The notes under the pieces: model-generated
Databases searched by the model: none
What the model was told of the DNA's origin: nothing
Seen by the model: the letters and a program-made list of their open reading frames with translations, nothing else
DNA from: an uncultured Eubacteriales bacterium
GTDB lineage: Bacteria; Actinomycetota; Coriobacteriia; Anaerosomatales; PHET01
Assembly: GCA_964403885.1 (NCBI GenBank)
Contig: CAYOHY010000005.1
Coordinates: forward strand, 5,949-69,948
Direction: 5' to 3'
Length of the DNA stretch: 64,000 nucleotides
Shown here: one piece after another, positions 2 to 62,938 of the stretch
Layout of the letters: every line of letters starts with the position of its first letter
Position numbering within the stretch: position 1 is the stretch's first letter
Program-made: the position numbers and the translations under genes

Positions 2-511
2 ACCCACGTCGACGCTCCGGGCAACGTCGTGTCCGACAAGGTCATCAACGTTCCCGGTTGCCCCACCAACCCGTGGTGGTTCGTCCTGACGGTCGTGGCA
101 TGGCTGGTCGACTTCGTTCAGCCGTCGCGTCCGCTGGGCATCCTCACCGCCGGTGGAGCGATCAACACGGCCGCCGTCGACTCTCAGCGTCGACTCAAGG
201 CTGTCTACGGCGTGCCGCTTCACGGTCCCCAGTGCAAGCGCTTCGACTACTGGAACCAGGGCATCTACGCCACCAAGCCGGGCGAGCCCGGCTGCCTGCA
301 GCTCATCGGCTGTAAGGGCATGCAGACCATGACTCTGTGCGCGATGCACGGCTGGAACGGTCAGGCTCCCCACAACAGCACCGCACTCGATTACGGCGTG
401 AGCGGCGTGAATGGCTCCAAGGGCGGCAACTGTGTTGCCGGCGGTCACCCGTGCATGGCTTGCACGGAGACCGGCTACCCGGATGCCTTCCTGCCGTTCG
501 TGATCCGCTAG
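2..511 (+). CDS. [NiFe]-hydrogenase small subunit, C-terminal part (5' end outside window)
   Basis: Frame is open from base 2. Motifs: NVPGCP, HxxxCxR, GCL..IGCKG..T...C..HGWN, GNCVAGGHPCMACTE.GYPD. No C-terminal TM helix. Confidence 0.93.
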   Translation, partial: THVDAPGNVVSDKVINVPGCPTNPWWFVLTVVAWLVDFVQPSRPLGILTAGGAINTAAVDSQRRLKAVYGVPLHGPQCKRFDYWNQGIYATKPGEPGCLQLIGCKGMQTMTLCAMHGWNGQAPHNSTALDYGVSGVNGSKGGNCVAGGHPCMACTETGYPDAFLPFVIR

Positions 512-534
512 TTAGGGAAGGAGGGAAACGATAG

Positions 535-2595
535 ATGGCTCTTGTATCTAGGGAAGTCGACCCGATCTCCCGTATCGAAGGTCACTTGGGCGTGAAGCTC
601 ACGGTCGACGATACGACCAACACGGTCTCTGAGGCCAACGTTCACGGTAACCTGTGGCGCGGCTTTGAGAACTTCCTCATCGGTCGTGAGATCAACGACG
701 CAATCACCTTCACCCAGCGTATCTGTGGCGTGTGTCCTGTGCCCCACGGCAACGCCTCGACCTTCGCGGCCGACGCGGTGCTCGGGTACAACGACTGCTT
801 CCAGACCTGGGTTGCCGGCGGTAACCAGCTCTCAAGCACCACCGGTAACACGATTGTTCCGGTTCCGGCCGGCCAGGGTGTCCCCGAGAAGGCTGTGCAC
901 ATCCGCAACCTGGTGCTCTCTGCCGAGTTCCTGATGTCGCACATCACCCACTCGTACCACCTGGCTGCCCCGAGCTACGTTCAGGGCCCCAACATCCCGC
1001 CGTGGACGCCGTACTTTGACGACAGCTTCTACGCGGGTGCCCTCTTGTCGATCGGCCATGGCATCGATGCCAACGGCAAGCCCGGCAAGGGTGCCGACAA
1101 GTCCCCGGCTGGCGCCGACACCAACGGTGCCGTTCCGCGCGACGTCGAGGGCTTCTCGAACGACCTGTGGTCCGCGGTCATCAAGCAGTACGTCAAGGCG
1201 CTCCGCATCCGCCGCCTCACCTTCGAGGCTGGCGCGCTGTTCGCCGGTCGTATGCCTATGACTTCGTGCTTCGTGGCCGGCGGTGTGACCACCGACAAGT
1301 CGGAGGTCCTCACCACCAAGTGCACCAAGTACCGCACGATGATGGTCGAGATCGGCAACTTCATCATCCAGGAGTTCGTGCCGCTCTTCCTCGCCCTCGG
1401 CGTGCTGTATCCCGCATGGGACAACGTCAACAACCCGGGTGGCCAGGGCTACGGCGGCGGCGTGGGCAACTTCCTCGCATGGGGTGGTTTCCCGCAGACC
1501 GACGGTACGCTCGGCTCCGCTCGTGGCTACAAGATCGGTGTCGGCGGCGCTGTTCAGCCGATCACCAAGGCCGGCGTCCTCGCCAACCTGCGTGAGCACA
1601 TCAAGTACTCGCGCTATGAGGGTGCCTCGCAGGCCAACGACAACGCCGGCGTTCCCAACCCGGCCGGCGTCACCGACCCTGCTTCCGAGGACCGCACCAT
1701 CCCGAAGCGCAACGACGCCGCGAAGTACTCGTGGCTCAAGGCGCCTCGCTGGAACGGCAACCCCATGGAAGTCGGCCCGATGGCCCGCATGTTCGTCGCC
1801 GGTGTCTTCCAGAACAACGTGTACCTGCGCACCACGGTGCCGGGCTACACCGCGTACGCGAAGACCGTCGGTGCTGTCACCGGTCTGAACCCGGCTCTCG
1901 TCGCCGCCGACCTTGCGGTCGCGTGTGTGCGTGAGGGCGTCGCGACGCTCACCATCGTCGATGGTGTCGCGCCCGGTACTGACCTCGTGGCTGACGCCGC
2001 GTACCTCGTGGGCAAGACGAACGCGCAGATCGCTGCTGCGTACGCCAACCCCAACGCGGTCATCACCGGTACTATCGCCGGTCGCATCTACAACATGAAG
2101 GCCGGCCTCTCCACGATCGACCGCCTCCGTGCGCGTCCGATCGAGGCCCTGGTCCTCATCCAGAAGATGATCGGTGGCTTCACCCCGGGCACCAACGGCC
2201 TGGATCCGATCAGCTGGGGCGGCACCGGTTGGGTCGATCAGCTGGCTGCGGCCACTGGCGACACCTTCATATCCAAGGCTCCGTCCGTGACGGGCGCCTT
2301 CGGGTTCGGTGCCGTCGAGGCTCCGCGTGGCGCGCTCATGCACATGGCCGCCATCGACGGTGCAGGCAAGATCGTTCGTTACCAGTGCATCGTTCCCACC
2401 ACGTGGAACGCGGCTCCCAAGGACGCGAATGACGTTCGCGGTCCCATGGAGCAGGCGATGATCGGTATTCCGTACTCGCCCGCAACGACGGCCTTCAACG
2501 GTGGCGCCGGCACTTCGCTCGTCGCCGGTGGTGGCGTCGAGGCTCTGCGTGTCGCCCAGTCCTTCGATCCGTGCATCGCTTGCGCGGTCCACTAA
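535..2595 (+). CDS. [NiFe]-hydrogenase large subunit, group 1-type, 686 aa
   Basis: RIEGH, RGFE, L1 motif QRICGVCPVPH, EAPRGAL.H, VPTTWN, L2 motif SFDPCIACAVH followed directly by TAA. RBS ggagg upstream. Confidence 0.97.
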   Translation: MALVSREVDPISRIEGHLGVKLTVDDTTNTVSEANVHGNLWRGFENFLIGREINDAITFTQRICGVCPVPHGNASTFAADAVLGYNDCFQTWVAGGNQLSSTTGNTIVPVPAGQGVPEKAVHIRNLVLSAEFLMSHITHSYHLAAPSYVQGPNIPPWTPYFDDSFYAGALLSIGHGIDANGKPGKGADKSPAGADTNGAVPRDVEGFSNDLWSAVIKQYVKALRIRRLTFEAGALFAGRMPMTSCFVAGGVTTDKSEVLTTKCTKYRTMMVEIGNFIIQEFVPLFLALGVLYPAWDNVNNPGGQGYGGGVGNFLAWGGFPQTDGTLGSARGYKIGVGGAVQPITKAGVLANLREHIKYSRYEGASQANDNAGVPNPAGVTDPASEDRTIPKRNDAAKYSWLKAPRWNGNPMEVGPMARMFVAGVFQNNVYLRTTVPGYTAYAKTVGAVTGLNPALVAADLAVACVREGVATLTIVDGVAPGTDLVADAAYLVGKTNAQIAAAYANPNAVITGTIAGRIYNMKAGLSTIDRLRARPIEALVLIQKMIGGFTPGTNGLDPISWGGTGWVDQLAAATGDTFISKAPSVTGAFGFGAVEAPRGALMHMAAIDGAGKIVRYQCIVPTTWNAAPKDANDVRGPMEQAMIGIPYSPATTAFNGGAGTSLVAGGGVEALRVAQSFDPCIACAVH

Positions 2596-2615
2596 CAGAG
2601 AGGGAGGTGAACAAA

Positions 2616-3866
2616 GTGAAGAGAGTATCCATCATCCTGGCCCTCACGGCCGTGATGCTGCTGGCCTTCGCCGGCTCCGCCTTCGCGAACTTCGGTCCGC
2701 ACGGCGGCTACGCCCTCGACACCGATGCGTGCGCCGGTTGCCACCGCGCACACACCTCGTTCTCTGAGGTGACGTGGGACAGCAACGGCACTCAGCGTAG
2801 CGCCCTTCTCGTGTCGTCGGCCAAGACGGCGACCGAGTTCTGCTACGCGTGCCACGGCAACGACGCCCCTGGTGCTTCCACCAACGTCGAGGCCGGTCTG
2901 TTCGATGCAGGCCCCTCCGGCGCCAACACTGTTCCGTTGGGCGGCGGTATCCTGTACGAGACCGAGTCCACCTTCAATGGTGGCCTCAACGGCGGTGCGT
3001 TCACCGGCGTGACGTCCATGCACGACATGGACAAGGGTGCGGTCACCGACCCGATGTGGGGCGCGGGCTCCTCGGCGCCGGCAGGCAAGAACCTGTCGTG
3101 CACGAGCTGCCACGACGTCCACGGTTCGTCCAACTACCGTCTCCTCAAGGACACGGTCGAGGGCGTGCCGGTCGGCGGCTACAACGCCAGCGACACCCCG
3201 ACCCCGATCGTCGTCTCGTACGAGACGAACTATCCGGTCGGCGGCTGGCTGAAGCACACCCCGGGTGCTGCTCAGATGGCGGCTTACCGTCCCAACTACA
3301 CCGAGCCCAAGTACAAGATCCTGCTCGGTGGCGGCGGCGCGGCCGGCCCCAACCGTTCGATGTCCACGTGGTGCTCCACCTGCCACGCGGCGTACAACGA
3401 CAAGACGAGCGCGTACGACTACGGTGCGTATGAGTCCAATGGCGCCATCAGCCGCGACGGCTTCGGCCAGCTCACGGTCACCGGTGCGACTCAGGCCGTT
3501 GGCTCGCGTGTCCGCCATCGTCACCCCGTCGACTCGACCGTGGTCTCCGCGAACACGGTGTCGGCCGGCTTTGGCACGAACGCCATCGTCGACTCGCTGC
3601 TTCCGCTCCAGCGCACCACCTCTACCGAGGGCAATGCCGCGGACAGCGTCCAGGACTACCTCGGCTGCCTGACCTGCCACCGTGCACACGGTTCGTCCGC
3701 GGTCATGACCGGCTGGGCCAACGCCCGCCTTGTCAATCGCGCGACGATCCCCACGTGGTCGGTCGAGCCCACGACGGCCCTCCCGGCTGGCGTGAACCCG
3801 AACGTGTCCTCGGCGATCCTGCGTGTGAACAACCGCGGCGTGTGCGAGCGTTGCCACAACAAGTAG
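2616..3866 (+). CDS. Exported hexaheme c-type cytochrome, OmcS-like architecture
   Basis: GTG start after agggagg. Signal peptide MKRVSIILALTAVMLLAFAGSAFA. Six CxxCH motifs (CAGCH, CYACH, CTSCH, CSTCH, CLTCH, CERCH) and six candidate distal His. Ends CERCHNK. Confidence 0.9.
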   Translation: MKRVSIILALTAVMLLAFAGSAFANFGPHGGYALDTDACAGCHRAHTSFSEVTWDSNGTQRSALLVSSAKTATEFCYACHGNDAPGASTNVEAGLFDAGPSGANTVPLGGGILYETESTFNGGLNGGAFTGVTSMHDMDKGAVTDPMWGAGSSAPAGKNLSCTSCHDVHGSSNYRLLKDTVEGVPVGGYNASDTPTPIVVSYETNYPVGGWLKHTPGAAQMAAYRPNYTEPKYKILLGGGGAAGPNRSMSTWCSTCHAAYNDKTSAYDYGAYESNGAISRDGFGQLTVTGATQAVGSRVRHRHPVDSTVVSANTVSAGFGTNAIVDSLLPLQRTTSTEGNAADSVQDYLGCLTCHRAHGSSAVMTGWANARLVNRATIPTWSVEPTTALPAGVNPNVSSAILRVNNRGVCERCHNK

Positions 3867-3897
3867 CAACCACCGCTCACAAAGCACCTGCACTGTC

Positions 3898-3936
3898 GAA
3901 GGGCCTCGGACGCAAGTCCGGGGCCCTTCTGCTTTC
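3898..3936 (+). terminator. Probable intrinsic terminator after the hydrogenase-cytochrome operon
   Basis: Hairpin gaagggcc-tcggac-gcaa-gtccg-gggcccttc followed by tgctttc. Confidence 0.75.
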
Positions 3937-4094
3937 TGTGCACATCACAGCTGCGAACGGGGACCAGATGAGAGCAGACGGATAGCAAATCGTTCAGCCC
4001 AACCCGTTGGCGGCCCGACAGACCTGCACAAACGCCCCTCGCAGCCCTATACTGTGCAGGTCAGGGGTTGTGCCCGCGCACGGGAATCCGGCCG

Positions 4095-5525
4095 ATGTCC
4101 CAGTGCCCCGAGGTAAGGAAGTGCATACGCGTGGAATCTCGCGAAGTCGCCGCTGGCGACATCCGTTCGCTGGGCCTCGTCGACGACCCCTTTCGGGTCG
4201 TGGATGACGGCTCCGGTAACGCCCCGGGCGTGAAGCTGGCCATCAATGCGGCCGCACTGCGCCTGTTCTGTGCGATCGAGGCCTCCGCGGCTGATCCGTC
4301 GCACCGCCCGATCGTCATCGAGAAGAACCGTGACATCCCGGCGTACTACCCGGTTGCCGCGTTGGCGAGGGTCTTCTCCGGCCTCTCGGACGAGACTCCG
4401 GTCGCTGGCATCCTGCAGTCATACATCCCGCTCGACATGATGCGTGTGGGCCGAGTCCGCTCGCTGCTCAACGTGGTGTCGGGCCGTGTCGCCGGCACCG
4501 ATCCCGCCGGCACCATCGGCATGTGGTCGCGTGAGGCGTTCGTCGAGCCTGACGAGTCGCTCGAGGAGTGGGCGGCGATCCGCGACACCATCACCGTCGC
4601 CGACATCCTCGACGAGATCGATCAGGACCCGCGCGCGTTTTGCGAGCGCATCTTTGGCGAGGTGGTCGAGTCCCGCTCCGGCGCCGAGAACATCGAACAG
4701 CTCATGCGCGTGTCCACGTCGCGTCAGGACCGCCTCGAGACCGACCCCGAAGAGGGTGTGGAGCTCGCCATCGCCGAGGATCCGGAGAGCGGGGATCTGC
4801 TCGACGACGCGTTCATCGTGCCGCTGGGTGAGCTCGACGCCGAGGCGCTGCCCGAGCCTGATCCGGCTACCGCTGTCGACGGGCTGATCGCCGACTACAT
4901 CATCGCCTTCACCAAAGAGCATCTCTCGCCGGTGGTCGCTCGCGGCATCGCAGCGTTTCGCGCCCAGGGCGTCAACTCGATGGCCGAGGAGCTCAAGATC
5001 ACCAAGGCCCCCAGCAAGACGGTGCACGCTCTCTACCGATTCGCCCGTCCGCGGTTCCGCTCCGGCGCCGTGATCTACGACCGCCTCGAGATGTGGGAGA
5101 ACGTGCCCACTGAGCTGCGGACCAAGATCGTGGGCACGATGACCGAGCTTCGCTGGGCACTGAAGGACGACGCATCGCTCGTGTTGATGCTCGTTCCCGG
5201 CACCTGCCCTGAGATCGAAGAGGGCTTCGCCTCGGCGATCCATGTGTCCTGGAGCTTCAAAGACGTCGAGCCCGTCTCCCAGCCTGACTCACCCTTCGAT
5301 CGTGCAATCGCCGCCGAGTGGCTCGCTTCCGCCTCGCTTTCGACCGAGGCGCCTGCGTGGGGCGATGCACTCTTCGATGCCATTCCCGAGGGTACGACGC
5401 TTGCGAGTGCAGCGACCGCCCTCTCGCGTGCGATCGAGCACGCCGTGGATGCTGGCTTGGCCGTACCTGATCCGGCCGTCGTGGTGGCCGCGCTTGATGC
5501 GGAGAAGGAGGCTGCCCCCGCCTGA
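4095..5525 (+). CDS. Hypothetical cytoplasmic protein, possibly a degenerate P-loop ATPase fold
   Basis: Long ORF with coding-like bias. N-terminal LGLVDDPF resembles the ExeA-type N-terminus, and GAVIYD resembles a Walker B motif. No Walker A. Stop overlaps the next ATG (TGATG). Confidence 0.7.
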   Translation: MSQCPEVRKCIRVESREVAAGDIRSLGLVDDPFRVVDDGSGNAPGVKLAINAAALRLFCAIEASAADPSHRPIVIEKNRDIPAYYPVAALARVFSGLSDETPVAGILQSYIPLDMMRVGRVRSLLNVVSGRVAGTDPAGTIGMWSREAFVEPDESLEEWAAIRDTITVADILDEIDQDPRAFCERIFGEVVESRSGAENIEQLMRVSTSRQDRLETDPEEGVELAIAEDPESGDLLDDAFIVPLGELDAEALPEPDPATAVDGLIADYIIAFTKEHLSPVVARGIAAFRAQGVNSMAEELKITKAPSKTVHALYRFARPRFRSGAVIYDRLEMWENVPTELRTKIVGTMTELRWALKDDASLVLMLVPGTCPEIEEGFASAIHVSWSFKDVEPVSQPDSPFDRAIAAEWLASASLSTEAPAWGDALFDAIPEGTTLASAATALSRAIEHAVDAGLAVPDPAVVVAALDAEKEAAPA

Positions 5526-8512
5526 TGCGTTCACGCCTCTCCAGCGCCTGGGTGTGTGCGGCGGCCCTTGTGGCCGTGGCCTTCTTCAGTGCTGTCTGGG
5601 TGGGGCCCGCATGGGCAGGGCCGGCGACTCCTGCTGCCGGGTTGGCGCCTCACGTTCCGATCACCTACGACACCGACGTGTGTGCCATGTGCCATCGGAC
5701 TCACTCGGCCCCCGGTGATGCGACGTGGCGCGACTCGCTGAACCAGACGCGCACGGCGCTTGCGGCGGGAAGCCCGGGTAGTGGCGATGCGGGACTGTGT
5801 TACACGTGCCACGGCGTCGAGACTCTCGGCTCGGGCACCGATATCCAGAGCTCCTTCGACGCCACCTCCGGCCACTCGCTCGAACCCAGCCCGTCGGCGT
5901 TTGGCGTATCGCCCAAGAACTGCAGCACCTGCCACGACTCACACGGCGCGGCGCGTGTCAGCACCGGCGTGCCGTACCCTGCGCTCCTGCGCGCGCGCAC
6001 CGCTTCCGGTGCGCTCGTGTACTCGGGCGATGTGGTGTGCACGGGGTGTCACGGCGTCAGGGCGGCGAGCAGCTTCCCCGGCCAAAGCGTCTGGGCCGCG
6101 TCGCCGCACTCGCGTATCGCCACTCCGGCCAGCGGGACGCGCATCGTGTGCAGCGCCTGTCACGACCCGCACGGCTCTCCCATCGCGCCGTCAATCCGCA
6201 CGGCGTTGGCGACCCCGTCGGCACCCGGCACGTACACCGTCGCCGCTAACGACCGTCGCCTGTGCTTCGGCTGCCACTCGGCGAAGCTTGGTGTCTGGAA
6301 CGGCTCCGCTTCCTATCCCGGCTCCTCGCACGCCTCGTCGACCGCGACCGTGACGATCTCGGGCGAGTGGGTCACCGGCACCGTCGTGCCGTTCCGGGCT
6401 GTGGGCGAGTGCCAGGTCTGCCACGCCTCGATGGGCAAGGGCGATGCGTCGGGAACGATCATCCCCACGCTTCTCAACGCCACGGGCCGCATCCTGTGCG
6501 ACACCTGCCATCGCACCGGCGGACCGGCCGTGTCGAACCTCGCGTCGCTCGCGTACTCGCCAACCACGCCGGGCAACGAGATCGTCGCCGCGTGGGGTGC
6601 CGTGACGTCCGATCGCTACGGTCGAGCCCAGGTGTTCGCCCGTGAGGCCACGTCGACCACCACTCCGGTGGGACCGCGTGACCTGTACCCCGTCACCAAG
6701 GTGGGGGACATGGCCGTGGGCGACATCGATGGCAACGGTGCCGCCGAGGCGATCGTCTCGGATCTGTCTGCGGCACGCGTGGCCATCCTCACGCAAAGCG
6801 ATCTGCGCTCCGTCGTGGCCACGCTGGTCACGCTCCCCGGAGCCGCGCCGGCCGAGAAGCTCACCGTTGGCGACGTGTTCGTCGACGGCTCCGGGCTGCC
6901 TGAGCTCGTGAGCGTGACCTCGACCGGAACGGTGCGGGTGTCGCGCTACGTCGCAGGATCGCTCGTCTCGGTTGACTCGGTTGTCGTGACCGGCACGCCC
7001 ATCGCGGTGGCCAGCGGCAACGTGACAGGGACCGCGGGGGCAGACATCGTCGTCACCACGGCGGCGAACACGATGTTCATCATCACGGATTCGGCCGGCA
7101 CGCTCGTGTCGCACGGTCCGTATGCGACACGAACCAACCCGGTGTCGGTCTCTGTGGGCAACGCCGATACGGACACGTCCACCGCCGAGATCGCCGTCGG
7201 CAACGCGGGCGAGGTCAACAACATCGTCTCTCTGTATCGCGGGACCGGCGTGCGCTACGACGATGGCGGAGGGCCCCTGCCGGCCGGCGCAAGCGTCAAC
7301 GCCGTGCTCATGGCCGACGTCCTTCCCGGGGTTACTCCGGGCGGCACGTCCGGCGCCGAGATCGCCGTCGCGTACGCCAACGCAAGCAACCGCACGGGCC
7401 TGCTGGTCGTTCCGCAGCCGCTGTCCACCAGCACCACCCAGCTCTACCCGGCTGCTGACCGCTCCAACGCGCGCGCGTTGGGCTTTGGTGACACCGATGG
7501 CGACGGCGACAAGGACATCGTGGTCGCGCTCTCGGGTGCGTTCACCCGGGACGCGAGTGCGACGCCGCCGTCGATCGCCATCTACACCCCGGTGTCGCCC
7601 GGCGGTGCGACGCTCAGCTTGCAGCACACCGCGTGGGGCGCCGGCGCCGAGATGGTGTCGTCACGTGCGGCGATCGCCGTGGCCGATATGGGCGCTGTGG
7701 TGCCGTCTCGCCACCCGGCAGGCGTGGTCGCGGGTGCCCACACTCCCACGGAGACGCCGCCCTACACTCGGCATGTGGAGTGCGTGGACTGTCACAACGT
7801 TCACGAGGCCAAGAACGACTCGGCCGACACCACGCTGATGGCAGGCGAGGAGCTGGGCGCGTGGGGCGTCTCGCGGGCGGCACTCTCGTCGACCACGCCG
7901 GTCCGCGCTCGCGCCACCGCCGAGTACGAGGTGTGCTACGCGTGCCATTCGTCGGCCGATCCCTCGGCGAACCGCAACGTCGCCTCTGAGGTCGTCACGT
8001 CGGGCATGTCGTATCACCCCATCGAGGGCCGCTCTCCCAACACGAGCGCTACCGGATCGACCCTGACCACCGCCGTGGTGGCGGGGGACCGCATCCGCTG
8101 TACGTCATGTCACGGCAACGCCGGGACCGGCGCTGCCGGTCCGCACCGTTCCCCCGCGTGGCCGCTGTTGTACAAGCGGTTCTCCGGGACGGTGGCGGTC
8201 GACTCGCAGATGGTGTGCTACGGCTGTCATGCTCCCGGCGTGTATCTGACCGGGGCCAACGACGGTGTGGGTGGAACGCGCAGCGGCTTCTACAACACCG
8301 CTGCAGGCGTGGGTAAGCCCGAGCAGCGCAAGCTTCACTCGTATCACGCCACCGCTGGCGTGGCATGTGCTGCATGTCACCTCAGTCACGGCGCACCCAC
8401 CCGCCGAGCGATGCTGCGCGGCGATGCGTTCACGTGGACCGAGCTGGCAGGCGGAGGACAGTGTGACGTGGCGTGCCATACGCCATCGACCACACATTCA
8501 TACACTCGATAG
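5525..8512 (+). CDS. Exported multiheme cytochrome c (13 CxxCH + 1 CxxxCH) with central FG-GAP/VCBS beta-propeller
   Basis: Signal peptide ending AWA. Eight heme motifs precede and six follow a block of about 7 repeats such as GDIDGNGAAEAIV and GDTDGDGDKDIVV. Confidence 0.9.
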   Translation: MRSRLSSAWVCAAALVAVAFFSAVWVGPAWAGPATPAAGLAPHVPITYDTDVCAMCHRTHSAPGDATWRDSLNQTRTALAAGSPGSGDAGLCYTCHGVETLGSGTDIQSSFDATSGHSLEPSPSAFGVSPKNCSTCHDSHGAARVSTGVPYPALLRARTASGALVYSGDVVCTGCHGVRAASSFPGQSVWAASPHSRIATPASGTRIVCSACHDPHGSPIAPSIRTALATPSAPGTYTVAANDRRLCFGCHSAKLGVWNGSASYPGSSHASSTATVTISGEWVTGTVVPFRAVGECQVCHASMGKGDASGTIIPTLLNATGRILCDTCHRTGGPAVSNLASLAYSPTTPGNEIVAAWGAVTSDRYGRAQVFAREATSTTTPVGPRDLYPVTKVGDMAVGDIDGNGAAEAIVSDLSAARVAILTQSDLRSVVATLVTLPGAAPAEKLTVGDVFVDGSGLPELVSVTSTGTVRVSRYVAGSLVSVDSVVVTGTPIAVASGNVTGTAGADIVVTTAANTMFIITDSAGTLVSHGPYATRTNPVSVSVGNADTDTSTAEIAVGNAGEVNNIVSLYRGTGVRYDDGGGPLPAGASVNAVLMADVLPGVTPGGTSGAEIAVAYANASNRTGLLVVPQPLSTSTTQLYPAADRSNARALGFGDTDGDGDKDIVVALSGAFTRDASATPPSIAIYTPVSPGGATLSLQHTAWGAGAEMVSSRAAIAVADMGAVVPSRHPAGVVAGAHTPTETPPYTRHVECVDCHNVHEAKNDSADTTLMAGEELGAWGVSRAALSSTTPVRARATAEYEVCYACHSSADPSANRNVASEVVTSGMSYHPIEGRSPNTSATGSTLTTAVVAGDRIRCTSCHGNAGTGAAGPHRSPAWPLLYKRFSGTVAVDSQMVCYGCHAPGVYLTGANDGVGGTRSGFYNTAAGVGKPEQRKLHSYHATAGVACAACHLSHGAPTRRAMLRGDAFTWTELAGGGQCDVACHTPSTTHSYTR

Positions 8513-9380: not shown

Positions 9381-12300
9381 ATGATGTGCTCGCGCAAAGC
9401 TCTCCGACGACTGGTCCAGCTCTCTGTCGCGTGGCTGTTGGTGGTGCCCTCTGTGGCCCTCGCGTCTCCCTACACCCAGCCCGTCGAGATCTTCAGGGAG
9501 ACGTTCGAGACGACGTCGACCGCGTACACGGTGTCGGCCATCCAGTCGTCCTCGCCGGCCAACTGGGAACGCATCACCAAGCGGTTCAAGAACGGTACCC
9601 GCGGACTGTGGTGCGCGGGTACGCTCGCTTCGGCGGTCACGGCGATGAAGTACCCGGCCAAGACCAGCACGTGGGCGCAGTTCGACCTCCCTCAGTTTGC
9701 AGACTACTACCAGCCGAGGGTCGACTTCGCCTACACGATGCCCACGTTGGGGGCGAACGACGCAGAGTCGTTCGTGGTGGCGTGGAGGCAGTCGTCGTCC
9801 GGCACAAACAATATGTTCAACCGGACGCCGTGGCCCAAGACCGGCGCCAGTGCGTGGGTCACCGGCACGGCCGATCTGACCACCGGCACGCAGTCGCTGT
9901 CGCGCTCCTCGGGCAGAATCGCCTTCAAGTTCATCGACATCGACGACACCAACCTCAGCCCTCAGCAGGGCGAGGGTACGACCATCGACGACGTCATCTT
10001 CTCCGGCTGGAAGTACGGTTCCCCGCGCAATCTTGCGTCTTCGGTGGGTACCTCGGCGATCAGACTGGACTGGACGCGTCCGTGGCGTTCGACGGCACAG
10101 ACCTCCACGGAGGAGCGCCCGATCACCTACCGTGTGTGGCGCGCGCCCGGGGGCACCACCACGTGGACCGAGCTCACGGATCCCAATCGCCTGACCGCTG
10201 ATCCGGCGAGCATGACCCTCAGTACGCCGATCATCGGCGAGGGTGTCTCGTACCGCTACTCGGTGCAGGCATGGGACACGGGTGACGGGCAGGGCCTGGG
10301 CCAGGCCTCGTTGACCACCGCCACGGTTCCTGCCGTCCCGCCGGGTGTCACGCTGATCTCGCCTGCGCAGAACTTCATGCTCTCGACCGCGCCCATCCTC
10401 ATCAGCGGAGGCGCGTCGGACACCGGTACCGGCGTCAACAACGTGCAGGTGCGCGTCCGCCGAGCGGACGGCAAGTGCCTCACCACTTTGGGCACCTGGT
10501 CGACCTCGGATGTGTGGTTGCCCACCACGTCGAGCGACGGATACGCCACGTGGTCTCGCACCTGGACGCCGGATGCGGAGACGCTTGCACTGGGTCAGAT
10601 AGTGACCATCACCGCCAAGTCGTTCGACGGCGCCGGGATGTCGGCCACCACGGGCGGCGTCGCCTCGACGGTGCCCATGAGCGCGTCGGTGTCGCTTGCG
10701 GGCGGCGCCCCCTTCACCACGCAGCGCGTCGTGAGCGCGGCGATCTCGGCCGCCGGAGCCACCCCCACCAAGATGCGTTGGAGCGTCGATGGTGCGGCAC
10801 CAAGCGGGTGGGTCAGCTACGCGACCTCGCAATCGGTCGATCTTGGCGCCGGCGATGGCACCAAGACCGTCACGTTCGAGCTGTCCGCCGACGGCGGCAC
10901 CAGTGTCGCCGCCGTGGCTTCTGACTCCATCGTCGTTCACACGAGCGTGCCGCAGGTCGTGCTCGTGACCCCGGCCGACGGCTTCGCCCTGACGTCGGGC
11001 GCGGTCGCGATCGACGCGAGCGCCACCGACGCCGGAGGGTCGATCCAGTCGGTCCAGGTGCGCGTGCGACGCAGCAGCGGTACCTCGTGGGACGGCTCGA
11101 GCTGGGTGGCGGCCGACACGTGGCTTCCCGCTAGCTTCAACGCCGCCACCTCCACCTGGAACTGCGCGTGGACGCCTGACGCGACGGTGATCGCCGCAGG
11201 CGAGATCGTCTCGGTGGTCGCGCGTGCCGTCGATGGAGCCGGCCTGGTGGGTACCAGCCCTGCTGCATCCTCGGCCACGCCGCTCGCAGCGTCGTTGTCG
11301 CTCGACGGTGGCGCCGCGGTGAGCACCGACCTCGACGTGCTCGCCTCGATCGTCGCGACGGGCTCGCCCACGTCGATGCGGTGGCGCGTGAACGGCGGCT
11401 CCTATGGCGCCCCTCAGCCGTTCGCATCGAGTGTCTCGGTGGCCCTGCCTGCGGGCGACGGCACCAAGACCGTTGAGTTCGAGCTCACCGGACCCGGTGG
11501 TGTGGTGACCGCGTCCGACACGATCATGGTCCACACGAGCGTCCCCGCTGTGTCGGTGTCGACGCCTCCGGGCGGCTTTGCGCTCAAGTCGGGCACCACG
11601 CACATCACCGGCACCGCGACCGATGCCGGCGGCTCGATCTCGGCTGTGGACGTGCTCATCAGGCGCGCCGACGGCCTGTGCTGGAACGGCAGCGGGTGGG
11701 TTGTGACTGAGACGTGGCTGGCGGCCTCGACCGCCAACGGCTACGCGGCGTGGTCCTACGACTGGACGCCGGCAGCTGGCGATATCGCCGCCGGCAAGAT
11801 CGTCACGGTCAGCGCGCGTGCGTTCGACGCATACGGCCTCTCAAGCACGACGACCGGTGTCTCCTCGGCGGTGCCGGTCTCGGCCTCGATCGCACTTGCG
11901 GGCGGCGCGCCCTTCTCGGGTTCTGCGACGATCCCTGTGGCGATCTCGGCGGTGGGGGCCACGCACATGCGGCACAGTGCCGATGGCGGCCCCATGTCGT
12001 CGTGGGTGGCCTTCAGCAGCGCCTCGACCGTCACCGTGACTCCGGCCGATGGCGTCAAGACCGTGACCTTCGAGTTCTCCTCGGATGGCGGCACGACCGT
12101 TGCGGCTACCGCCTCCGATGACATCGTGGTCGACGGGTCCATCCCGGTGGTCGCGATCACGGCGCCGCAAGCGCAGTTCCTCACCACGGCGACGCCCGTG
12201 ATCCAGGGAACGGCCACCGATACCGTCTCCGGCGTGAGCGGCGTGAAGGTGCGGATCAGCAGCAATGGCGAGTACTTCAACGGCATCGCGTGGCAGCCTG

Positions 12301-13079
12301 AGGCGTTCGACCTCACAGCCACCTCTGACGACGGCTTTGCCACGTGGCGTGTGCTGACCGTTCCGTCGGGCCCGGCGCTTCCGTGGCTGCCGATGACGGT
12401 TCAGGCCACGGCGGTTGACGCCGTGGGCAACTCGGCGGTATCGGGCTCCGTGGTCTCTAACGACCCGCTGGATCCGGCGGCGCTCAGTGTCGCCGTGTCT
12501 CGGACCACAGTGCTGTACGCGGGGAGCGCCAGCGTCACCGGTACCCTGACCGTGCTGTCAGGCGCCTCCGCAGTGGGTCGCGCGGTGGACCTGCAGTACC
12601 TCTCCGGCACCACGTGGACGCGCCTCGCGAGCGCTACGACCACGGCCTCGGGTCGCGTGACCTTCACCGTGAAGCCGGCGTCCAAGACGTCGTATCGGCT
12701 CGTGTGCGTCGCCCCCGGGCTCCAGCAGGTCGCGAGCGGCATCGTCGCGGTCACGCCGGGTGTCTCGGTGACGGTGCCCACCAAGCCTTCCGTGGCCTAC
12801 CGCAACCGGGCGTTCACATCAGTGGTCACGCTCAAGCCGCGACACACCGTGGGCACCTATCCCGTGAACATCCAGTGCTACCGACTGGAGAGCGGCAAGT
12901 GGGTGCTGCGAAAGACGGTCAAGGCCAAGGCGACCTACAGCTCGACCACCTACACCCGGTGCAGCGGCGCCGTGGCGCTGCCCTATACCGGTACGTGGAA
13001 GGTCCGCGCCGTCGCGGTGGCCGATTCCGCACATGCGGCGACAACCGGCACGTTCAGCGCGAACTTCTCGGTGAGGTAG
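9381..13079 (+). CDS. Large secreted surface protein with FN3 and tandem Ig-like (Big) repeats
   Basis: Signal peptide, FN3-like segment (PRNL..., LDW, YRVWR, YRYSVQAWD) and repeated ~200-aa beta-rich units. Confidence 0.85.
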   Translation: MMCSRKALRRLVQLSVAWLLVVPSVALASPYTQPVEIFRETFETTSTAYTVSAIQSSSPANWERITKRFKNGTRGLWCAGTLASAVTAMKYPAKTSTWAQFDLPQFADYYQPRVDFAYTMPTLGANDAESFVVAWRQSSSGTNNMFNRTPWPKTGASAWVTGTADLTTGTQSLSRSSGRIAFKFIDIDDTNLSPQQGEGTTIDDVIFSGWKYGSPRNLASSVGTSAIRLDWTRPWRSTAQTSTEERPITYRVWRAPGGTTTWTELTDPNRLTADPASMTLSTPIIGEGVSYRYSVQAWDTGDGQGLGQASLTTATVPAVPPGVTLISPAQNFMLSTAPILISGGASDTGTGVNNVQVRVRRADGKCLTTLGTWSTSDVWLPTTSSDGYATWSRTWTPDAETLALGQIVTITAKSFDGAGMSATTGGVASTVPMSASVSLAGGAPFTTQRVVSAAISAAGATPTKMRWSVDGAAPSGWVSYATSQSVDLGAGDGTKTVTFELSADGGTSVAAVASDSIVVHTSVPQVVLVTPADGFALTSGAVAIDASATDAGGSIQSVQVRVRRSSGTSWDGSSWVAADTWLPASFNAATSTWNCAWTPDATVIAAGEIVSVVARAVDGAGLVGTSPAASSATPLAASLSLDGGAAVSTDLDVLASIVATGSPTSMRWRVNGGSYGAPQPFASSVSVALPAGDGTKTVEFELTGPGGVVTASDTIMVHTSVPAVSVSTPPGGFALKSGTTHITGTATDAGGSISAVDVLIRRADGLCWNGSGWVVTETWLAASTANGYAAWSYDWTPAAGDIAAGKIVTVSARAFDAYGLSSTTTGVSSAVPVSASIALAGGAPFSGSATIPVAISAVGATHMRHSADGGPMSSWVAFSSASTVTVTPADGVKTVTFEFSSDGGTTVAATASDDIVVDGSIPVVAITAPQAQFLTTATPVIQGTATDTVSGVSGVKVRISSNGEYFNGIAWQPEAFDLTATSDDGFATWRVLTVPSGPALPWLPMTVQATAVDAVGNSAVSGSVVSNDPLDPAALSVAVSRTTVLYAGSASVTGTLTVLSGASAVGRAVDLQYLSGTTWTRLASATTTASGRVTFTVKPASKTSYRLVCVAPGLQQVASGIVAVTPGVSVTVPTKPSVAYRNRAFTSVVTLKPRHTVGTYPVNIQCYRLESGKWVLRKTVKAKATYSSTTYTRCSGAVALPYTGTWKVRAVAVADSAHAATTGTFSANFSVR
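10340..12470 (+). repeat. Intragenic tandem repeat, about 3.5 units of ~600 nt
   Basis: Recurrent motifs: ASD.GG.I..V.V..RR.DG..W.G..W, GYA.WS..WTPD, AS..LAGGAPF, GDG.KTV.FE. Unit starts near 10340, 10945, 11540 and 12140. Boundaries are approximate. Confidence 0.75.
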
Positions 13080-14274: not shown

Positions 14275-15120
14275 GTGATCGAGGCGGAACCCGCGCACGC
14301 CAGCCGCGGCAGCATCGATAGGCTCATAGCGAAGATCAACGAGACGCGCGGTATCGACCTCTCTCAGTACCGTATCGCCTACGTCGAGCGGCGCCTCGCT
14401 GCGCGCATGCGCACGCTTGATGTGCGCACCTACCGCCAGTATGCCGACCTGCTCGAGTCGGACCCCGACGAATTCGCCAAGATGCTCGACACCCTCACGA
14501 TCAACGTCACCGACTTCTTCCGCGACGGTGTCATGTGGGAGTCCCTGCGCAACAACGTGCTTCCCTCGCTGGTCGAGGCGAAGCGCGCGGGACGCAACCG
14601 CACCATCCGCCTCTGGTCCGCAGGCTGTGCCACCGGCGAGGAGGCGTACTCGCTCGCGATGATGATGCTCGACCATCTGGGTCCCGAGGCATCGCGCTAT
14701 CTCATCTCCGTGTTAGCAACCGACCTTGACCCCATCGCGCTCAAGAAGGCCGAGGCGGGCGTCTATCACGTGGATCGCCTCAAGCGCATTTCGCCAAGCT
14801 ATCAGGTACGATTCACGCGAAGCGTGAGCGACACACAGTTCGAGATCAGACCCGAGGTCAAGCGGATGGTCAGGTTCAGGCGGATGAGCCTGTTCGACCC
14901 AACGCCGGTCAGGGTCATCGATCTCATCTTGTGCCGCAACGTGTTCATCTATTTCGATCGCGAACAGCAGGCCCGGGTGCTCGACAACTTCTGGGACTCC
15001 CTCAGCCGTGGCGGGTACCTCGTGCTCGGCCGGAGTGAGAAGTTGTCGCCGGACATGTCCGCCCGGCTCGAATCGGTTGACGGCAAGGAACGCATCTATC
15101 GCAAGCCGGCCCGCCCGTAG
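14275..15120 (+). CDS. cheR: Chemotaxis protein-glutamate methyltransferase
   Basis: [44 protein letters not shown]. Confidence 0.96.
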
Positions 15121-15161
15121 GGTCGACACCCGACCCGCTGGGTCGGCGAGGGGAGTCTCGT

Positions 15162-16484
15162 ATGACGCAGGAGCACCGCCACAGTGCAATGAGGCACGGT
15201 CTGTCGTCGACGTTCACGGTCCTCACGTGGATGACCATCGGACCGCCTGTGTTGCTCGGCCTCGTCGCCACGGCCTTCTTCGCCGAGCGGTGGCTGGATC
15301 TGTCCTGGGGTCAGATGGCGCCGGTGATCGGTTTCGGTGCTGTCGCGATGCTCGTGATGGCCCCGGTCGGAACGCTCGCGTGGCGCTGGCAGTTCAAGTC
15401 ACGCATCCTCAGGCCGCTTCGCGATCTGGGCGGCGTGATGATCGAGGCCGGCAAGGGTGACCTGACGCAGCGTGCGGACATCCATCGCGACGACGAGATC
15501 GGCATGCTCGCCAACGAGTGCAACATGCTCGTCGCATCCCTGGGCACCATCGCCAACCAGGTCCGCCGTTCCGCCGAGAGTGTCTCGGCCGCCGCATCGC
15601 AGCTGTCGGCGTCTTCGCAAGAGATCAACTCGTCCACCATCGAGATCTCGAGCTCGGTGCAGCAGATCGCGCACGGTGCCGAGCTGCAGTCGCGCAAGGT
15701 CGACGAGACCAGCCGCTCGATGGAGATCATCGCAGGCACGACCCGCGAGGTCGCCGTCAAGGCCCGCGACGCCGCGTTCACGAGCGACGAGGCCTTGAGT
15801 GTCGCTCGACACGGCGAGGAGGCGACCACACAGGCCATCGTCAAGATCGCCGAGGTGCAGCAGGCCATCGAGACCCTCGCCGAGTCGGTCGAGGTCCTCG
15901 GCCAGCGCAGCGAGAAGATCGGCGGCATCGTCGACGTCATCACCTCGATCGCGGACCAGACCAACCTGCTCTCACTCAACGCCGCCATCGAGGCGGCCCG
16001 TGCCGGCGAGTCCGGCCGCGGCTTCTCGGTGGTCGCCGAGGAGGTCCGCAAGCTCGCCGAAGGCTCCGGGCGTGCCGCCGAGCAGATCGGCGACCTCATC
16101 CGCGAGGTCCAGGCCGAGACCGCCAAGGCGCTGCGCTACATGGAGATCGGCACGCGCGAGGTCGAGGTGGGCAGCGAGGTCGTAGGCCGCACAAGCGATG
16201 CGCTGCGCCTCATCACCGACGCCGTCACGCGAACGTCCACGCTCGCCAGCGAGATCAACAAGTCAATGCAGGCGCAGTCGGAGCGCACCGCCGAGGTCGA
16301 CCGAGCGATGCATGAGATCGCTGCGGTGGTCGAGGAGAACGCCGCGTCCGCCGAGGAGACCGCCGCCGCGGCCGAGGAGCAGACCGCCTGCATGGAGGAG
16401 ATCACCGCATCCGCACAGGACCTGTCGGATATGGCAGAACGCCTGGATGATGCGGTCCACCGCTTCAAGACAGAAGAGGGATAG
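15162..16484 (+). CDS. Methyl-accepting chemotaxis protein (2 TM, HAMP, signalling domain)
   Basis: GDLT....DEIG HAMP motif and [37 protein letters not shown]. Confidence 0.96.
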
Positions 16485-16488
16485 GACG

Positions 16489-16977
16489 GTGGGCGAGTCC
16501 AAGGGCGCGAGCTACGTGGTGTTCCGCCTCGGCTCCGAGGAGTACGGGCTTCCCGTGGGCGCCGTCAACAGCATCATTCGGTACGAGGATGCGACGCCCG
16601 TCCCGCGGGCACCCGCTTCCGTGCTTGGCGTGATCAACCTTCGGGGGCGCGTCGTTCCGGTGATCGACCTGCTGTACCGATTCTCGGGCAAGCGTTTCGA
16701 GCCGCGCCCCATGTCGCGCATCGTGGTGGCCGAGGGGCGGACCGGCCCTGTGGGTGTCGTCGTGGACGCTGCCCACGAGGTCGCGCAGTTCTCCGAGGAG
16801 TCGTTTTGTGAGGTGCCCGAAGGGGTGCTGAGCCCGGAGACCGCCCGCGCCTTCACCGGTGTGGTCGAGCGCGACGGGTCTTTGGTCATACTGCTCGATC
16901 TCGATGAAGCAGTCCCGCGCGTCGAACTCGGCGCTTCGAACCCCGATGCATACGAGGAAGGGGAGACGGATGTCTAA
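16489..16977 (+). CDS. cheW: Chemotaxis adaptor
   Basis: YVVFRLGSEEYG, VPRAP..VLGVINLRGRVVPVIDL. Confidence 0.93.
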   Translation: MGESKGASYVVFRLGSEEYGLPVGAVNSIIRYEDATPVPRAPASVLGVINLRGRVVPVIDLLYRFSGKRFEPRPMSRIVVAEGRTGPVGVVVDAAHEVAQFSEESFCEVPEGVLSPETARAFTGVVERDGSLVILLDLDEAVPRVELGASNPDAYEEGETDV

Positions 16978-17341
16978 GACCGTGCTCGTGGTCGACGACG
17001 CCGCTTTCATGAGGATGATGATTCGAGACATCCTGGCGAAGGAAGGCTACGTGATCCACGAGGCCGTCAACGGCCGTGACGCCGTTGAGAAGTACGCGGA
17101 GCTGAAACCCGACCTCGTCACCATGGATATCACGATGCCCGAGGTCGACGGCATCTCGGCGCTGCGGTCGATCAGAGAGGCGGATCCGGGCGCGCGCGTG
17201 CTCATGGTGAGCGCCATGGGCCAGCAGAAGATGATCGTCGAGGCCCTCGAGGCCGGCGCACTGGACTTCCTGGTAAAGCCCTTCCAGCCAACCAAGGTGC
17301 TCGAGACGGTCAAGAAGTGCCTCGACGCGTCCGCCGGATAG
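16970..17341 (+). CDS. cheY: Single-domain response regulator
   Basis: VLVVDDAAFMRMMI, PDLVTMDITMPEVDG, SAMGQ, FLVKPF (B. subtilis/Thermotoga CheY type). Confidence 0.93.
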   Translation: MSKTVLVVDDAAFMRMMIRDILAKEGYVIHEAVNGRDAVEKYAELKPDLVTMDITMPEVDGISALRSIREADPGARVLMVSAMGQQKMIVEALEAGALDFLVKPFQPTKVLETVKKCLDASAG

Positions 17342-17353
17342 GGTTCTCACGTC

Positions 17354-18451
17354 ATGCCATCCACGATCCGCGTGCTCGTTGTCGACGACTCGGCGCTCAT
17401 CAGGCAGATGCTCACGCGAGCGCTGTCGATGGATCCGCGCATCGAGATCGTCGGCACAGCCAAGACCGGCGTGGAGGCTATCGAGCGTGCCCGTGAACTC
17501 GACCCCGACGTGGTGACGCTCGACATCGAGATGCCTGAGCTGACAGGGCTTGAGGCGCTGCCGCACATCTGCCGTCACACCCGCGCGCGCGTGGTCATGC
17601 TCTCGTCGCTCGATGATCCCGATACCACCTATCGAGCGCTGTCATCGGGCGCGGTGGACTTCATCCCCAAGCCCAGCACGGGCATGGCGAGCTCGCTGGC
17701 TGAGCTCACGGACACACTGCTCAAGAAGATCAAGACCGCCAACCGCATCAGCCCCGATCGCGCCGCCGCCATACGTGGCGAGCTCGAGGCTCCGGCTGCG
17801 CAGCTGCGCGATGTGTCGGCTGGCGAGGTGACCCGTCCTCTGCCGGCTACTGCAGGGCCCATCTCATCGGTGGTCGCTATCGCGGCTTCCACCGGCGGCC
17901 CGCCTGCGCTCGAACGCGTCATGGCCGGCCTGAGCGCGAGCATGGGTGCCACCTACCTGATCCTGCAACACCTCCCCAAGGGGTTCTCGGCGTCACTTGC
18001 CAGGCGACTGAACACGGTGGGCGACTTGACCGTTGTCGAGGCCGAGGACGGCATGCCGCTTGAGCCCGGGAGAGGCTACCTGGCCCCCTACGGTCGCCAC
18101 ATGGTTGTCGATCGCTCAAGCGGCGTGGGATGCATCGCGTTCGTGGACGCGCCGCCGCTGCACGGTGTTCGCCCCGCGGCCGATGTCTTGTTCGACAGCG
18201 TGGCCTCGGCCTATCACGATCGCGCGGTGGCGGTCGTGCTGACGGGCATGGGGGCCGATGGGGCGCTCGGCGCCCGCAAGATCCGCGACGCCGGGGGAGA
18301 GGTCGTGGTCCAGGACGAGCCCACGAGCGTCGTCTGGGGCATGCCCGGCGCAGCGATTCGCGAGGGCGCGTCTTCGCGGGTGGTCCCTTTGGGGCTGGTG
18401 GCCGCGGAGATTCGCCGCGCGGTGAGGATGCGGGCCGGTGATTCCTCATGA
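17354..18451 (+). CDS. cheB: Chemotaxis methylesterase (REC + CheB domain)
   Basis: REC domain, AASTGGP, ILQHLP, RPAADVLF, VLTGMGADG. Confidence 0.96.
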   Translation: MPSTIRVLVVDDSALIRQMLTRALSMDPRIEIVGTAKTGVEAIERARELDPDVVTLDIEMPELTGLEALPHICRHTRARVVMLSSLDDPDTTYRALSSGAVDFIPKPSTGMASSLAELTDTLLKKIKTANRISPDRAAAIRGELEAPAAQLRDVSAGEVTRPLPATAGPISSVVAIAASTGGPPALERVMAGLSASMGATYLILQHLPKGFSASLARRLNTVGDLTVVEAEDGMPLEPGRGYLAPYGRHMVVDRSSGVGCIAFVDAPPLHGVRPAADVLFDSVASAYHDRAVAVVLTGMGADGALGARKIRDAGGEVVVQDEPTSVVWGMPGAAIREGASSRVVPLGLVAAEIRRAVRMRAGDSS

Positions 18452-20391: not shown

Positions 20392-20393
20392 CG

Positions 20394-34557: not shown

Positions 34558-34686
34558 TTTACCCACCCGTTCGCCCCCTCGTTCGGTTGTAGACGCGCGG
34601 GAACTCTTATAGAGTTCTCATGGAATGCCGCGCGACGGTCGCCGGCACGCGCGTCGCGTGTAAGAACTAGCGAGGAAGAGGTGCGT

Positions 34687-51430: not shown

Positions 51431-51560
51431 TCTCTGAAGCTCCTTAGTGGCGGTGCGCGCCTGTGCTACCATCGAACCATCCTAGGGCTCCTACGGCGCC
51501 TCTGATGGGCGCGGAGGGAGGTGACGGCGCGACGGCCACGGTGCCGTCAACGCCAGATTC

Positions 51561-53814: not shown

Positions 53815-53897
53815 CGCCGGCGCGCTCCTGATAGACTGTTCGGCGTGCGGCCCGCGTGGTCGCTCCGGTAACCGAAGAGGCGAGTGGAGCTGCGGCG

Positions 53898-54614: not shown

Positions 54615-54656
54615 CCTCGGCACGACCAGGGGGCAGATGCCCCCAGGAGGAGACCC

Positions 54657-61511: not shown

Positions 61512-61588
61512 GGCGGTGTAGCTCAGCTGGTCAGAGCACGCGGTTCATACCCGCGGCGTCGCTGGTTCGAGTCCAGCCACCGCTACCA
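61512..61588 (+). tRNA. tRNA-Met(CAT), probably elongator
   Basis: cgcgg-ttCATac-ccgcg, GGCGGTG acceptor stem, encoded CCA. Confidence 0.93.
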
Positions 61589-61728: not shown

Positions 61729-62916
<1,188 letters not shown>

Positions 62917-62938
62917 CAATCGCTTCGCAGCGAATTGT

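Follow-up and report, generated by a model that had tools for sequence, protein, structure and literature searches.

When a [NiFe] hydrogenase has neither a membrane anchor nor a cytochrome b subunit, to which protein does it hand its electrons? This question is raised by the first 3.9 kb of a 64,000-nucleotide stretch of DNA (the whole of which we call the window; positions 5,949 to 69,948 of contig CAYOHY010000005.1, assembly GCA_964403885.1) from an uncultured member of the Anaerosomatales, where genes for the small and large subunits of such an enzyme are followed, all three on the plus strand, by a gene for a hexahaem c-type cytochrome. A first-pass annotation of the window had read these genes as a hydrogenase joined in one operon to a nanowire cytochrome of the OmcS type, in an organism with a single membrane. 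The organism is indeed a monoderm, belonging to the Actinomycetota, and the gene arrangement recurs in many of its relatives. Here we argue that the cytochrome is, on balance, the probable electron acceptor of the hydrogenase, and we weigh this interpretation against other explanations of the same genes.

The hydrogenase and cytochrome genes form a conserved operon

The window opens inside the small subunit gene and contains the part that encodes its C-terminal 169 residues (positions 2 to 511; Pfam NiFe_hyd_SSU_C PF14720, E = 1.4e-15); the truncation is due to the edge of the window, and the gene is no pseudogene. The large subunit gene (535-2595, 686 residues, ATG start; PF00374, E = 2.7e-75) begins 23 nt after the small subunit stop codon, and the cytochrome gene (2616-3866, 416 residues, GTG start), identified by the match of its family profile to OmcS and by six CXXCH motifs, begins 20 nt after the large subunit stop codon. 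Each of these gaps contains a ribosome-binding site (RBS) that can be read directly from the DNA, namely GGAGG at 520-524 for the large subunit and GGGAGGTG at 2602-2609 for the cytochrome. The unit is closed by an intrinsic terminator (3898-3939, plus strand), in which a stem of 14 base pairs (3898-3929), 10 of them GC, is followed by a T-rich tail (TGCTTTCTGT). Its folding energy is -38.4 kcal/mol (z = -5.96; none of 200 shuffled sequences was as stable), and no internal terminator lies within the unit. The GC content is 65.8%. The identities, common orientation, short gaps, separate RBSs and terminator that the first-pass annotation had given were therefore correct in every detail that could be checked, and as judged from these signals the three genes are a dedicated, co-transcribed operon.

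We scanned one genome per GTDB species with a profile of the cytochrome. This returned 79 loci, nearly all of them in metagenome-assembled genomes (MAGs) labelled as Actinomycetota (Coriobacteriia, Anaerosomatales, Thermoleophilia or unclassified), with several labelled 'uncultured Eubacteriales'. The order small subunit, large subunit, cytochrome, hairpin is found in about 35 species-level genomes of Coriobacteriia/Actinomycetota, which come from groundwater, peat, sediments and biofilms; the pairing of a hydrogenase with an OmcS-like cytochrome, first noticed in a single organism, is thus a recurrent one. The longer order, in which the genes for P485 and P263 (described below) follow the cytochrome gene, is present in every locus that has a cytochrome of at least about 44% identity to that of the window and enough upstream sequence, the exceptions being L015 and L018, two recent extra copies. 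Cytochrome paralogues at 36-43% identity have no hydrogenase beside them. The gap between the large subunit and cytochrome genes is 13-32 nt across 40 loci (median 20), and in the distant loci L075/L076 it gives way to an overlap of 4 nt. In nearly all of the related loci the cytochrome gene is followed by a hairpin, rich in GC, of the GGGGCCCCGG...CCGGGGCCCC type. The arrangement is far beyond chance, because the same order, the same spacing and a GC-rich hairpin occur in about 38 independent loci. It was also observed that in about 38 loci (numbered between L001 and L078) the GGGGCCCCGG...CCGGGGCCCC palindrome lies 30-90 nt past the cytochrome stop codon, and that the sequence flanking it is not conserved.

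In a neighbour-joining tree the hydrogenase-linked cytochromes essentially make up one clade (35 linked and 5 derived unlinked sequences) that stands apart from the unlinked paralogues; the genomes of these bacteria contain several OmcS-like paralogues. L075/L076 fall outside the main clade as a second linked pair. A single clade of linked cytochromes implies long co-inheritance, and as read from this tree the linkage between hydrogenase and cytochrome is old, dedicated and largely vertical.

The hydrogenase is anchorless and distantly related to group 1a enzymes

The window cuts the small subunit gene, and its N-terminus and upstream anatomy were therefore taken from two relatives with longer flanks, L001 (HGW-Actinobacteria-7) and L003. 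The full-length orthologous small subunits of these loci have 453-459 residues and start with MAITRRQFV, a twin-arginine (Tat) signal, and the motif (I/V)TRRQF is found in the orthologues from L001, L003, L076 and L049; the export signal that could be looked for only beyond the edge of the window is thus present in the relatives. At its other end the window protein finishes with GYPDAFLPFVIR (PFVIR, then the stop codon) and lacks a hydrophobic tail, and no transmembrane (TM) segment was predicted in either the window fragment or the full-length relatives, in agreement with the original view that the small subunit has no anchor.

The large subunit contains the motifs RIEGH and RICGVC and, directly before the stop codon, DPCIACAVH, so that all four cysteine ligands of the Ni-Fe site are present. 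The hydrogenase looks catalytically competent, since it has all of these ligands and both ligand motifs are kept in 119 of the 120 listed large-subunit homologues. Among solved structures both subunits are nearest to the soluble periplasmic [NiFeSe]/[NiFe] group 1a enzymes of sulfate reducers: the best match of the large subunit in the PDB is 5jsu_B (NiFeSe, group 1a; 8.6e-56, in four blocks), and the best relatives of the small subunit are periplasmic NiFeSe/NiFe small subunits. The enzyme itself was rejected as a [NiFeSe] hydrogenase, its fourth Ni ligand being cysteine and not selenocysteine (DPCIACAVH). The relationship to group 1a is distant, with an NCBIfam score of 316 bits against a cut-off of 600, and both subunits have sizeable insertions (a large subunit of 686 residues against about 500, with three insertions relative to the group 1a enzymes, and a small subunit of about 455 residues against about 315). 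From these comparisons the hydrogenase may be a separate deep lineage rather than a member of subgroup 1a. The family PF27537.1 is precomputed on many of the large-subunit homologues (for example P0121), our local Pfam scan of the window protein gave no match to it, and it may correspond to one of the large subunit insertions.

In each of the 120 listed large-subunit homologues (46-97% identity) the final His of DPCxxCxxH is the last residue. The C-terminal extension that is cleaved by an endopeptidase, a feature of group 1, is thus absent from the window protein; exported enzymes of group 1 do not usually lack this tail. The distant versions of the operon in L076 and L049 keep an extension of about 10-22 residues, and because these more distant versions still carry it, its loss seems to be derived within the core clade.

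Is there, then, a membrane subunit encoded nearby? In L001 and L003 the small subunit gene is directly preceded by a non-coding stretch of about 300 nt (the promoter region), and none of the genes within 10 kb on either side has a match to the Pfam families of cytochrome b, HybA/HybB or NrfD. The same families were not found among the downstream open reading frames (ORFs) of the window that were scanned, so that the reported absence of a cytochrome b or HybA/HybB partner downstream stands and extends, in the relatives, to the upstream side. No maturation protease was found within 10 kb on either side in L001 and L003, nor among the scanned ORFs of the window. The operon therefore departs from group 1i and the quinone-linked architecture, which has a cytochrome b or HybA/HybB subunit and a maturation protease, and agrees with that of group 1a in having no cytochrome b and an anchorless small subunit; its structure also points to a c-type cytochrome as the acceptor.

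The cytochrome is a distant homologue of OmcS

The cytochrome has a Sec signal peptide (residues 1-24, cleavage at AFA|NFGPHGG) and CXXCH motifs at residues 39, 76, 162, 253, 351 and 410; six such motifs are present in 118 of the 120 listed homologues. A search of the PDB with the single sequence (phmmer) gave no match. When a profile built from an alignment of 33 homologues was used instead, it matched OmcS (6ef8/6nef) with E = 1e-12, over profile positions 38-418 and chain residues 8-406, with the six haem motifs colinear and in register. Up to E = 10 there were just two further matches, to OmcE (0.29) and to an unrelated cytochrome c domain (1.2), neither of them significant. The CXXCH motifs alone do not explain the match to OmcS, because the PDB contains many multihaem cytochromes and the others were not significant. 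BLASTP aligned the cytochrome with OmcS (residues taken from the PDB alignment) from end to end at 25% identity (E = 5e-11), and hhalign gave a probability of 98.9%. By these comparisons the cytochrome is a genuine but distant homologue of OmcS, and the 'OmcS-type' label of the first-pass annotation holds with that qualification. A GenBank 'OmcS' label on one relative (P0090) was given no independent weight; NCBIfam has no OmcS model.

In its sequence the cytochrome agrees with what would be expected of the OmcS family, whose defining property is filament formation. Exactly six His residues outside the CXXCH motifs are invariant across the 33 sequences (29, 46, 136, 169, 303 and 358), which would suffice for six bis-His haems if these residues are the ligands. 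The N- and C-termini are the most conserved segments of the family, and in OmcS the termini carry the haems at the subunit junction. His16 of OmcS, in CEGCHTMH, which we take to be the ligand that crosses between subunits, aligns with His46 in the invariant CAGCHRAH of our family; the correspondence is one of alignment. In OmcS filaments a His of one subunit ligates a haem of the next, and this is part of what holds the filament together (PMC9473688). An AlphaFold2 (AF2) model made with the 33 sequences had a predicted local distance difference test (pLDDT) score of 51, too poor for inspection of the fold or of an interface, and a Foldseek search with this model gave nothing below E = 4.7, which is noise; folds of the OmcS type are known to escape such searches (PMC9473688). 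Polymerisation would account for the retention of two proteins without anchors by a cell that lacks an outer membrane. We hold it possible that the cytochrome forms an OmcS-like polymer, with somewhat less than even confidence.

Genes around the operon

A second conserved unit appears to start at a promoter-like site (TGCACA-17-TATACT, 4025-4053, plus strand) that was recognised by its match to the consensus only. Its first gene encodes P485, an acidic cytoplasmic protein of 464 residues (4131-5525, plus strand) that follows the cytochrome in about 35 loci. P485 has no match in Pfam, NCBIfam or the PDB sequences; its AF2 model is confident (pLDDT 86), and the best Foldseek E value was 0.09, among weak AAA+-like matches none of which is significant. 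The stop codon of the P485 gene overlaps by 1 nt the start of a gene for a secreted 13-haem cytochrome of 995 residues with a signal peptide (5525-8512, plus strand; Paired_CXXCH_1, MtrC/MtrF domain II/IV, FG-GAP_3), in which the 13 CXXCH motifs are interrupted by an FG-GAP/VCBS-like beta-propeller region. It lies 1.7 kb downstream of the operon, several relatives have it in the same neighbourhood, and it probably belongs to the same extracytoplasmic electron-transfer network as the operon. Its N-terminus (PHVPITYDTDVCAMCHRTH) resembles the conserved N-terminus of the OmcS-like family (GPHGGYALDTDACAGCHRAH). The next protein, P263 (8578-9369, plus strand; conserved synteny), has an N-terminal membrane anchor (one TM segment, residues 13-31) and an extracytoplasmic domain, and is a candidate membrane tether. 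The last gene of the unit (9381-13079, plus strand; synteny) encodes a secreted protein of 1232 residues with a signal peptide or TM segment at residues 11-29, relatives of which have a bacterial Ig domain.

On the upstream side, the genes that precede the promoter region in L001 and L003 encode NHL-repeat, TPR, small anchored and 13-TM proteins and a second OmcS-like cytochrome. The latter lies 6-10 kb upstream of the hydrogenase (L001, 1-3388; L003, 1-3532) and is followed by the 13-TM protein, which has no family match, and then by a paralogue of P263 (BLASTP 1e-8 in L001). In L001 the 13-TM protein is encoded three genes upstream, has 482 residues, gave no Pfam match and shows no homology to P485. 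The arrangement suggests a recurring module of an OmcS-like cytochrome and a membrane companion. Two further genes were observed around the distant operon of L076: upstream, one for a 14-haem cytochrome (3028-4119), and downstream (11665-12294), one for a protein that has a Tat signal and the pattern CxxCxxxC at its N-terminus and resembles a molybdopterin oxidoreductase.

A few kb downstream of the operon there is a chemotaxis cluster, CheR-MCP-CheW-CheY-CheB-CheA(-CheC), in the window (14275-21005) as well as in L001 (16455-21275) and L003 (17336-21287). Further along, the window encodes a NapC/NirT-type membrane cytochrome of 710 residues with an N-terminal NapC/NirT domain and 22 CXXCH motifs (34681-36813), followed by a polytopic membrane protein of the DUF2085 family (to 37793); this 22-haem cytochrome is a candidate link between quinol and the surface cytochromes. 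The window also contains genes for peptidoglycan enzymes, Rex and lysS-clpC-radA-disA. Three ORFs on the minus strand, at 51444-52610, 53583-56177 and 61531-63762 (388, 864 and 743 residues), had no Pfam match at E <= 1e-4.

Proposed electron path and competing explanations

In the mechanism that we propose, the Tat signal of the small subunit, which is present in the relatives and expected in the window protein, would export the assembled small and large subunits together across the membrane, and the hexahaem OmcS homologue would be exported by Sec and matured outside. The distal Fe-S cluster of the hydrogenase would then pass electrons from H2 to the co-transcribed cytochrome; we infer this transfer because the enzyme lacks a membrane anchor as well as cytochrome b and HybA/B. 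The cytochrome would thereby take the role that type I cytochrome c3 has for the periplasmic hydrogenases of Desulfovibrio, and the electrons would enter a surface network of multihaem cytochromes made up of the paralogous OmcS-like, the 13-haem and the NapC/NirT-type proteins, to end on Fe(III), humics, an electrode or a partner cell, or to return to membrane complexes. By analogy with group 1a, we regard it as somewhat probable that the cytochrome is the hydrogenase's electron acceptor and feeds H2 electrons into such a network. A polymer could in addition hold the anchorless enzyme at the surface of the monoderm cell, and this part of the interpretation is more tentative and falls a little short of being probable. 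The uptake direction is suggested by the affiliation with group 1 and by the physiology of the cultured Anaerosomatales, which use Fe(III), thiosulfate or sulfur when they grow on H2 (PMC9686372). Among the relatives, a Coriobacteriales MAG that was abundant on an anode encodes an OmcS homologue and has 37 multihaem cytochromes (PMC7399161).

Several points weigh against this interpretation. Gene linkage is what suggests the contact and the electron transfer between hydrogenase and cytochrome, the structural model of the cytochrome was unusable and the Foldseek search made with it was meaningless. A recognisable anchor is missing from the hydrogenase and from the cytochrome, which leaves the retention of both at the surface unexplained. 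[NiFe] hydrogenases are reversible, and the sequence does not reveal the direction. There is also a problem of energy conservation: by chemiosmotic principles, the oxidation of H2 and the reduction of Fe(III), if both occur outside, would yield no proton-motive force, so that an external path from H2 to Fe(III) alone cannot drive growth, because no charge crosses the membrane. Furthermore, for quinone-linked H2 respiration the cultured relatives possess another hydrogenase, of group 1i and with a cytochrome b (PMC9686372), which makes the physiological purpose of a second hydrogenase unclear. Of the original proposal that H2 chemistry is coupled directly to the cytochrome, the part that stands is the operon linkage, which is conserved; the H2-to-Fe(III) route outside the membrane would not conserve energy on its own. 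It is more likely that the electrons join the wider cytochrome network than that they take a direct route from H2 to Fe(III), and given the energy problem the system may return electrons to membrane complexes, serve functions other than growth or operate in reverse.

The return of electrons to the membrane is the core of one competing explanation, in which the cytochrome is a non-polymeric carrier like c3 that takes electrons from the hydrogenase to membrane complexes (for example of the NapC/NirT type) and so to the quinone pool or to cytoplasmic reductions. We consider this a realistic possibility, although we lean against it. It would follow the usual energy-conserving logic of periplasmic hydrogenases and remove the problem just described, and the window encodes a NapC/NirT-family membrane cytochrome; the low identity to OmcS means that polymerisation need not be conserved, and several OmcS-like paralogues per genome would be in keeping with a general electron-carrier family. 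However, a free soluble carrier would be expected to escape from a monoderm cell, and the invariance of the equivalent of the inter-subunit His of OmcS, together with the conservation of both termini, would fit the subunit junction of a polymer. The opposite extreme, a polymeric cytochrome wire that spans the wall or extends outside the cell, carries the docked anchorless hydrogenase and interconverts H2 and current without the quinone pool in a Gram-positive organism, is in our view rather unlikely. If it were true, such a hydrogenase-on-wire could explain why cytochrome-rich Coriobacteriia are found on both anodes and H2-producing cathodes.

The same proteins could also run in reverse, with the OmcS-like cytochrome drawing electrons from Fe(0), a cathode or a syntrophic partner and the surface hydrogenase making H2, which would diffuse into or around the cell as a membrane-permeant electron carrier. 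The reversibility of [NiFe] hydrogenases and the lack of a quinone-linked subunit are compatible with this, Methanococcus maripaludis has a secreted [NiFe] hydrogenase without an anchor that produces H2 from Fe(0) (PMC6181927), and relatives of these bacteria have been seen on a biocathode in a microbial electrolysis cell (PMC7399161). Nevertheless we think it unlikely. Group 1 enzymes are usually uptake enzymes, and bis-His multihaem cytochromes of the OmcS type generally lie well above the potential of the H+/H2 couple. Production of H2 outside followed by its re-oxidation inside would be expected to cost proton-motive force, as protons are consumed externally and released internally, and the cultured relatives are H2 oxidisers (PMC9686372).

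The genes may, alternatively, be expressed together only because they serve one lifestyle, such as H2-dependent metal reduction, with no direct exchange of electrons and with the true partner of the hydrogenase encoded elsewhere. The interaction is a proposal drawn from gene order, and there are many other multihaem cytochromes nearby and elsewhere in these genomes; yet the tight spacing is kept across lineages in which the proteins are only about 45% identical, up to the gene overlap in L075/L076, the linked cytochromes form a dedicated clade, and the unit has no gene for any other candidate acceptor. We therefore regard co-regulation alone as quite improbable. That the enzyme is not an energy enzyme at all but an H2 sensor that signals to the chemotaxis cluster a few kb downstream is scarcely credible, even though its large subunit lacks the C-terminal extension, as do those of sensory hydrogenases, and the cluster is present in the window, L001 and L003. 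Sensory hydrogenases of group 2b are cytoplasmic and have no Tat signal, whereas the relatives of our small subunit have one; the closest relatives of the enzyme are in group 1, the distant versions in L076 and L049 keep the extension, and the partner here is a cytochrome and not a kinase. The Tat signal and the affinity to group 1 led us to reject a sensory hydrogenase.

Comparison with known systems

The working principle most resembles, by analogy, that of the group 1a hydrogenases of Desulfovibrio and Desulfomicrobium with type I tetrahaem cytochrome c3. Both are Tat-exported heterodimers (here as judged from the relatives) with no cytochrome b and no small subunit anchor, both would use a soluble multihaem c-type cytochrome as acceptor, and the solved structures that match best come from this group. 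The two differ in that the partner here is a 416-residue hexahaem OmcS homologue encoded in the same operon, as opposed to a tetrahaem c3 of about 13 kDa, and in that the monoderm host lacks a periplasm in which soluble proteins would be kept; the insertions, the missing cleaved extension and the score of 316 against 600 bits also set the hydrogenase itself apart. OmcS of Geobacter sulfurreducens (6EF8/6NEF) falls in the length class of our cytochrome, is likewise secreted, has its six CXXCH motifs in the same order and can be aligned with it from end to end; CHDPH and CHRAH are common to both, and a His of our protein aligns with His16. It differs in its sequence (about 25% identity) and in its diderm rather than Gram-positive actinobacterial host, and its polymerisation is known, whereas here polymerisation is a possibility. 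In addition, we know of no case in Geobacter in which omcS is encoded behind a hydrogenase.

The Hup hydrogenase of Dehalococcoides is part of a quinone-independent complex for organohalide respiration. It too is an externally facing [NiFe] enzyme of a monoderm that gives electrons to extracytoplasmic redox proteins without quinones, although its partners are Fe-S and molybdoenzyme-like proteins, HupX and OmeA, in a membrane supercomplex, with no c-type cytochromes. The 'MIC' [NiFe] hydrogenase of Methanococcus maripaludis (PMC6181927) resembles ours in being secreted by a Tat-type signal, anchorless and active outside the cell at a solid surface. It is archaeal, evolves H2 on Fe(0), has no reported cytochrome partner and lies on an unstable genomic island, whereas the operon described here appears, from the tree, to be vertically inherited in the core Coriobacteriia clade. 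Finally, the group 1i 'Coriobacteria-type' hydrogenase of the cultured Anaerosomatales (PMC9686372; HydDB, PMC5037454) comes from the same class and is likewise of the group 1 uptake type; its cluster contains a cytochrome b and a maturation protease, whereas our operon has neither, and its large subunit would need no C-terminal cleavage.

Significance

No description of an operon of a hydrogenase and an OmcS homologue was found in the full-text literature; most subscription journals lie outside that coverage, so that a prior report is possible. Within this scope the suspicion that the pairing was undescribed is borne out. A Coriobacteriales genome from an anode biofilm was reported to encode an OmcS homologue (28% identity, six haem motifs), in a paper that does not mention a hydrogenase (PMC7399161), and earlier genomic work recorded the co-occurrence of multihaem cytochromes with uptake hydrogenases within Actinobacteria genomes (PMC5520028). 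Only the linkage to the hydrogenase therefore appears to be new. The operon is a real, conserved and widespread instance of the theme of a periplasmic hydrogenase with a multihaem cytochrome partner, for which we propose the mechanism above.

The operon touches on two open questions, namely how electrons pass through the thick Gram-positive wall and how H2 metabolism is linked to extracellular electron transfer, for which it offers a compact and widely conserved candidate link that consists of a single enzyme and a single OmcS-family cytochrome and lacks a membrane subunit. The absence of the customary C-terminal processing signal from the large subunit also makes the enzyme interesting for studies of hydrogenase maturation and for heterologous expression. 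If the cytochrome is the partner of the enzyme, the roles of the OmcS family would extend beyond the diderm metal reducers, and for the subsurface Actinomycetota there would be a defined genetic marker of mineral, electrode or corrosion chemistry linked to H2.

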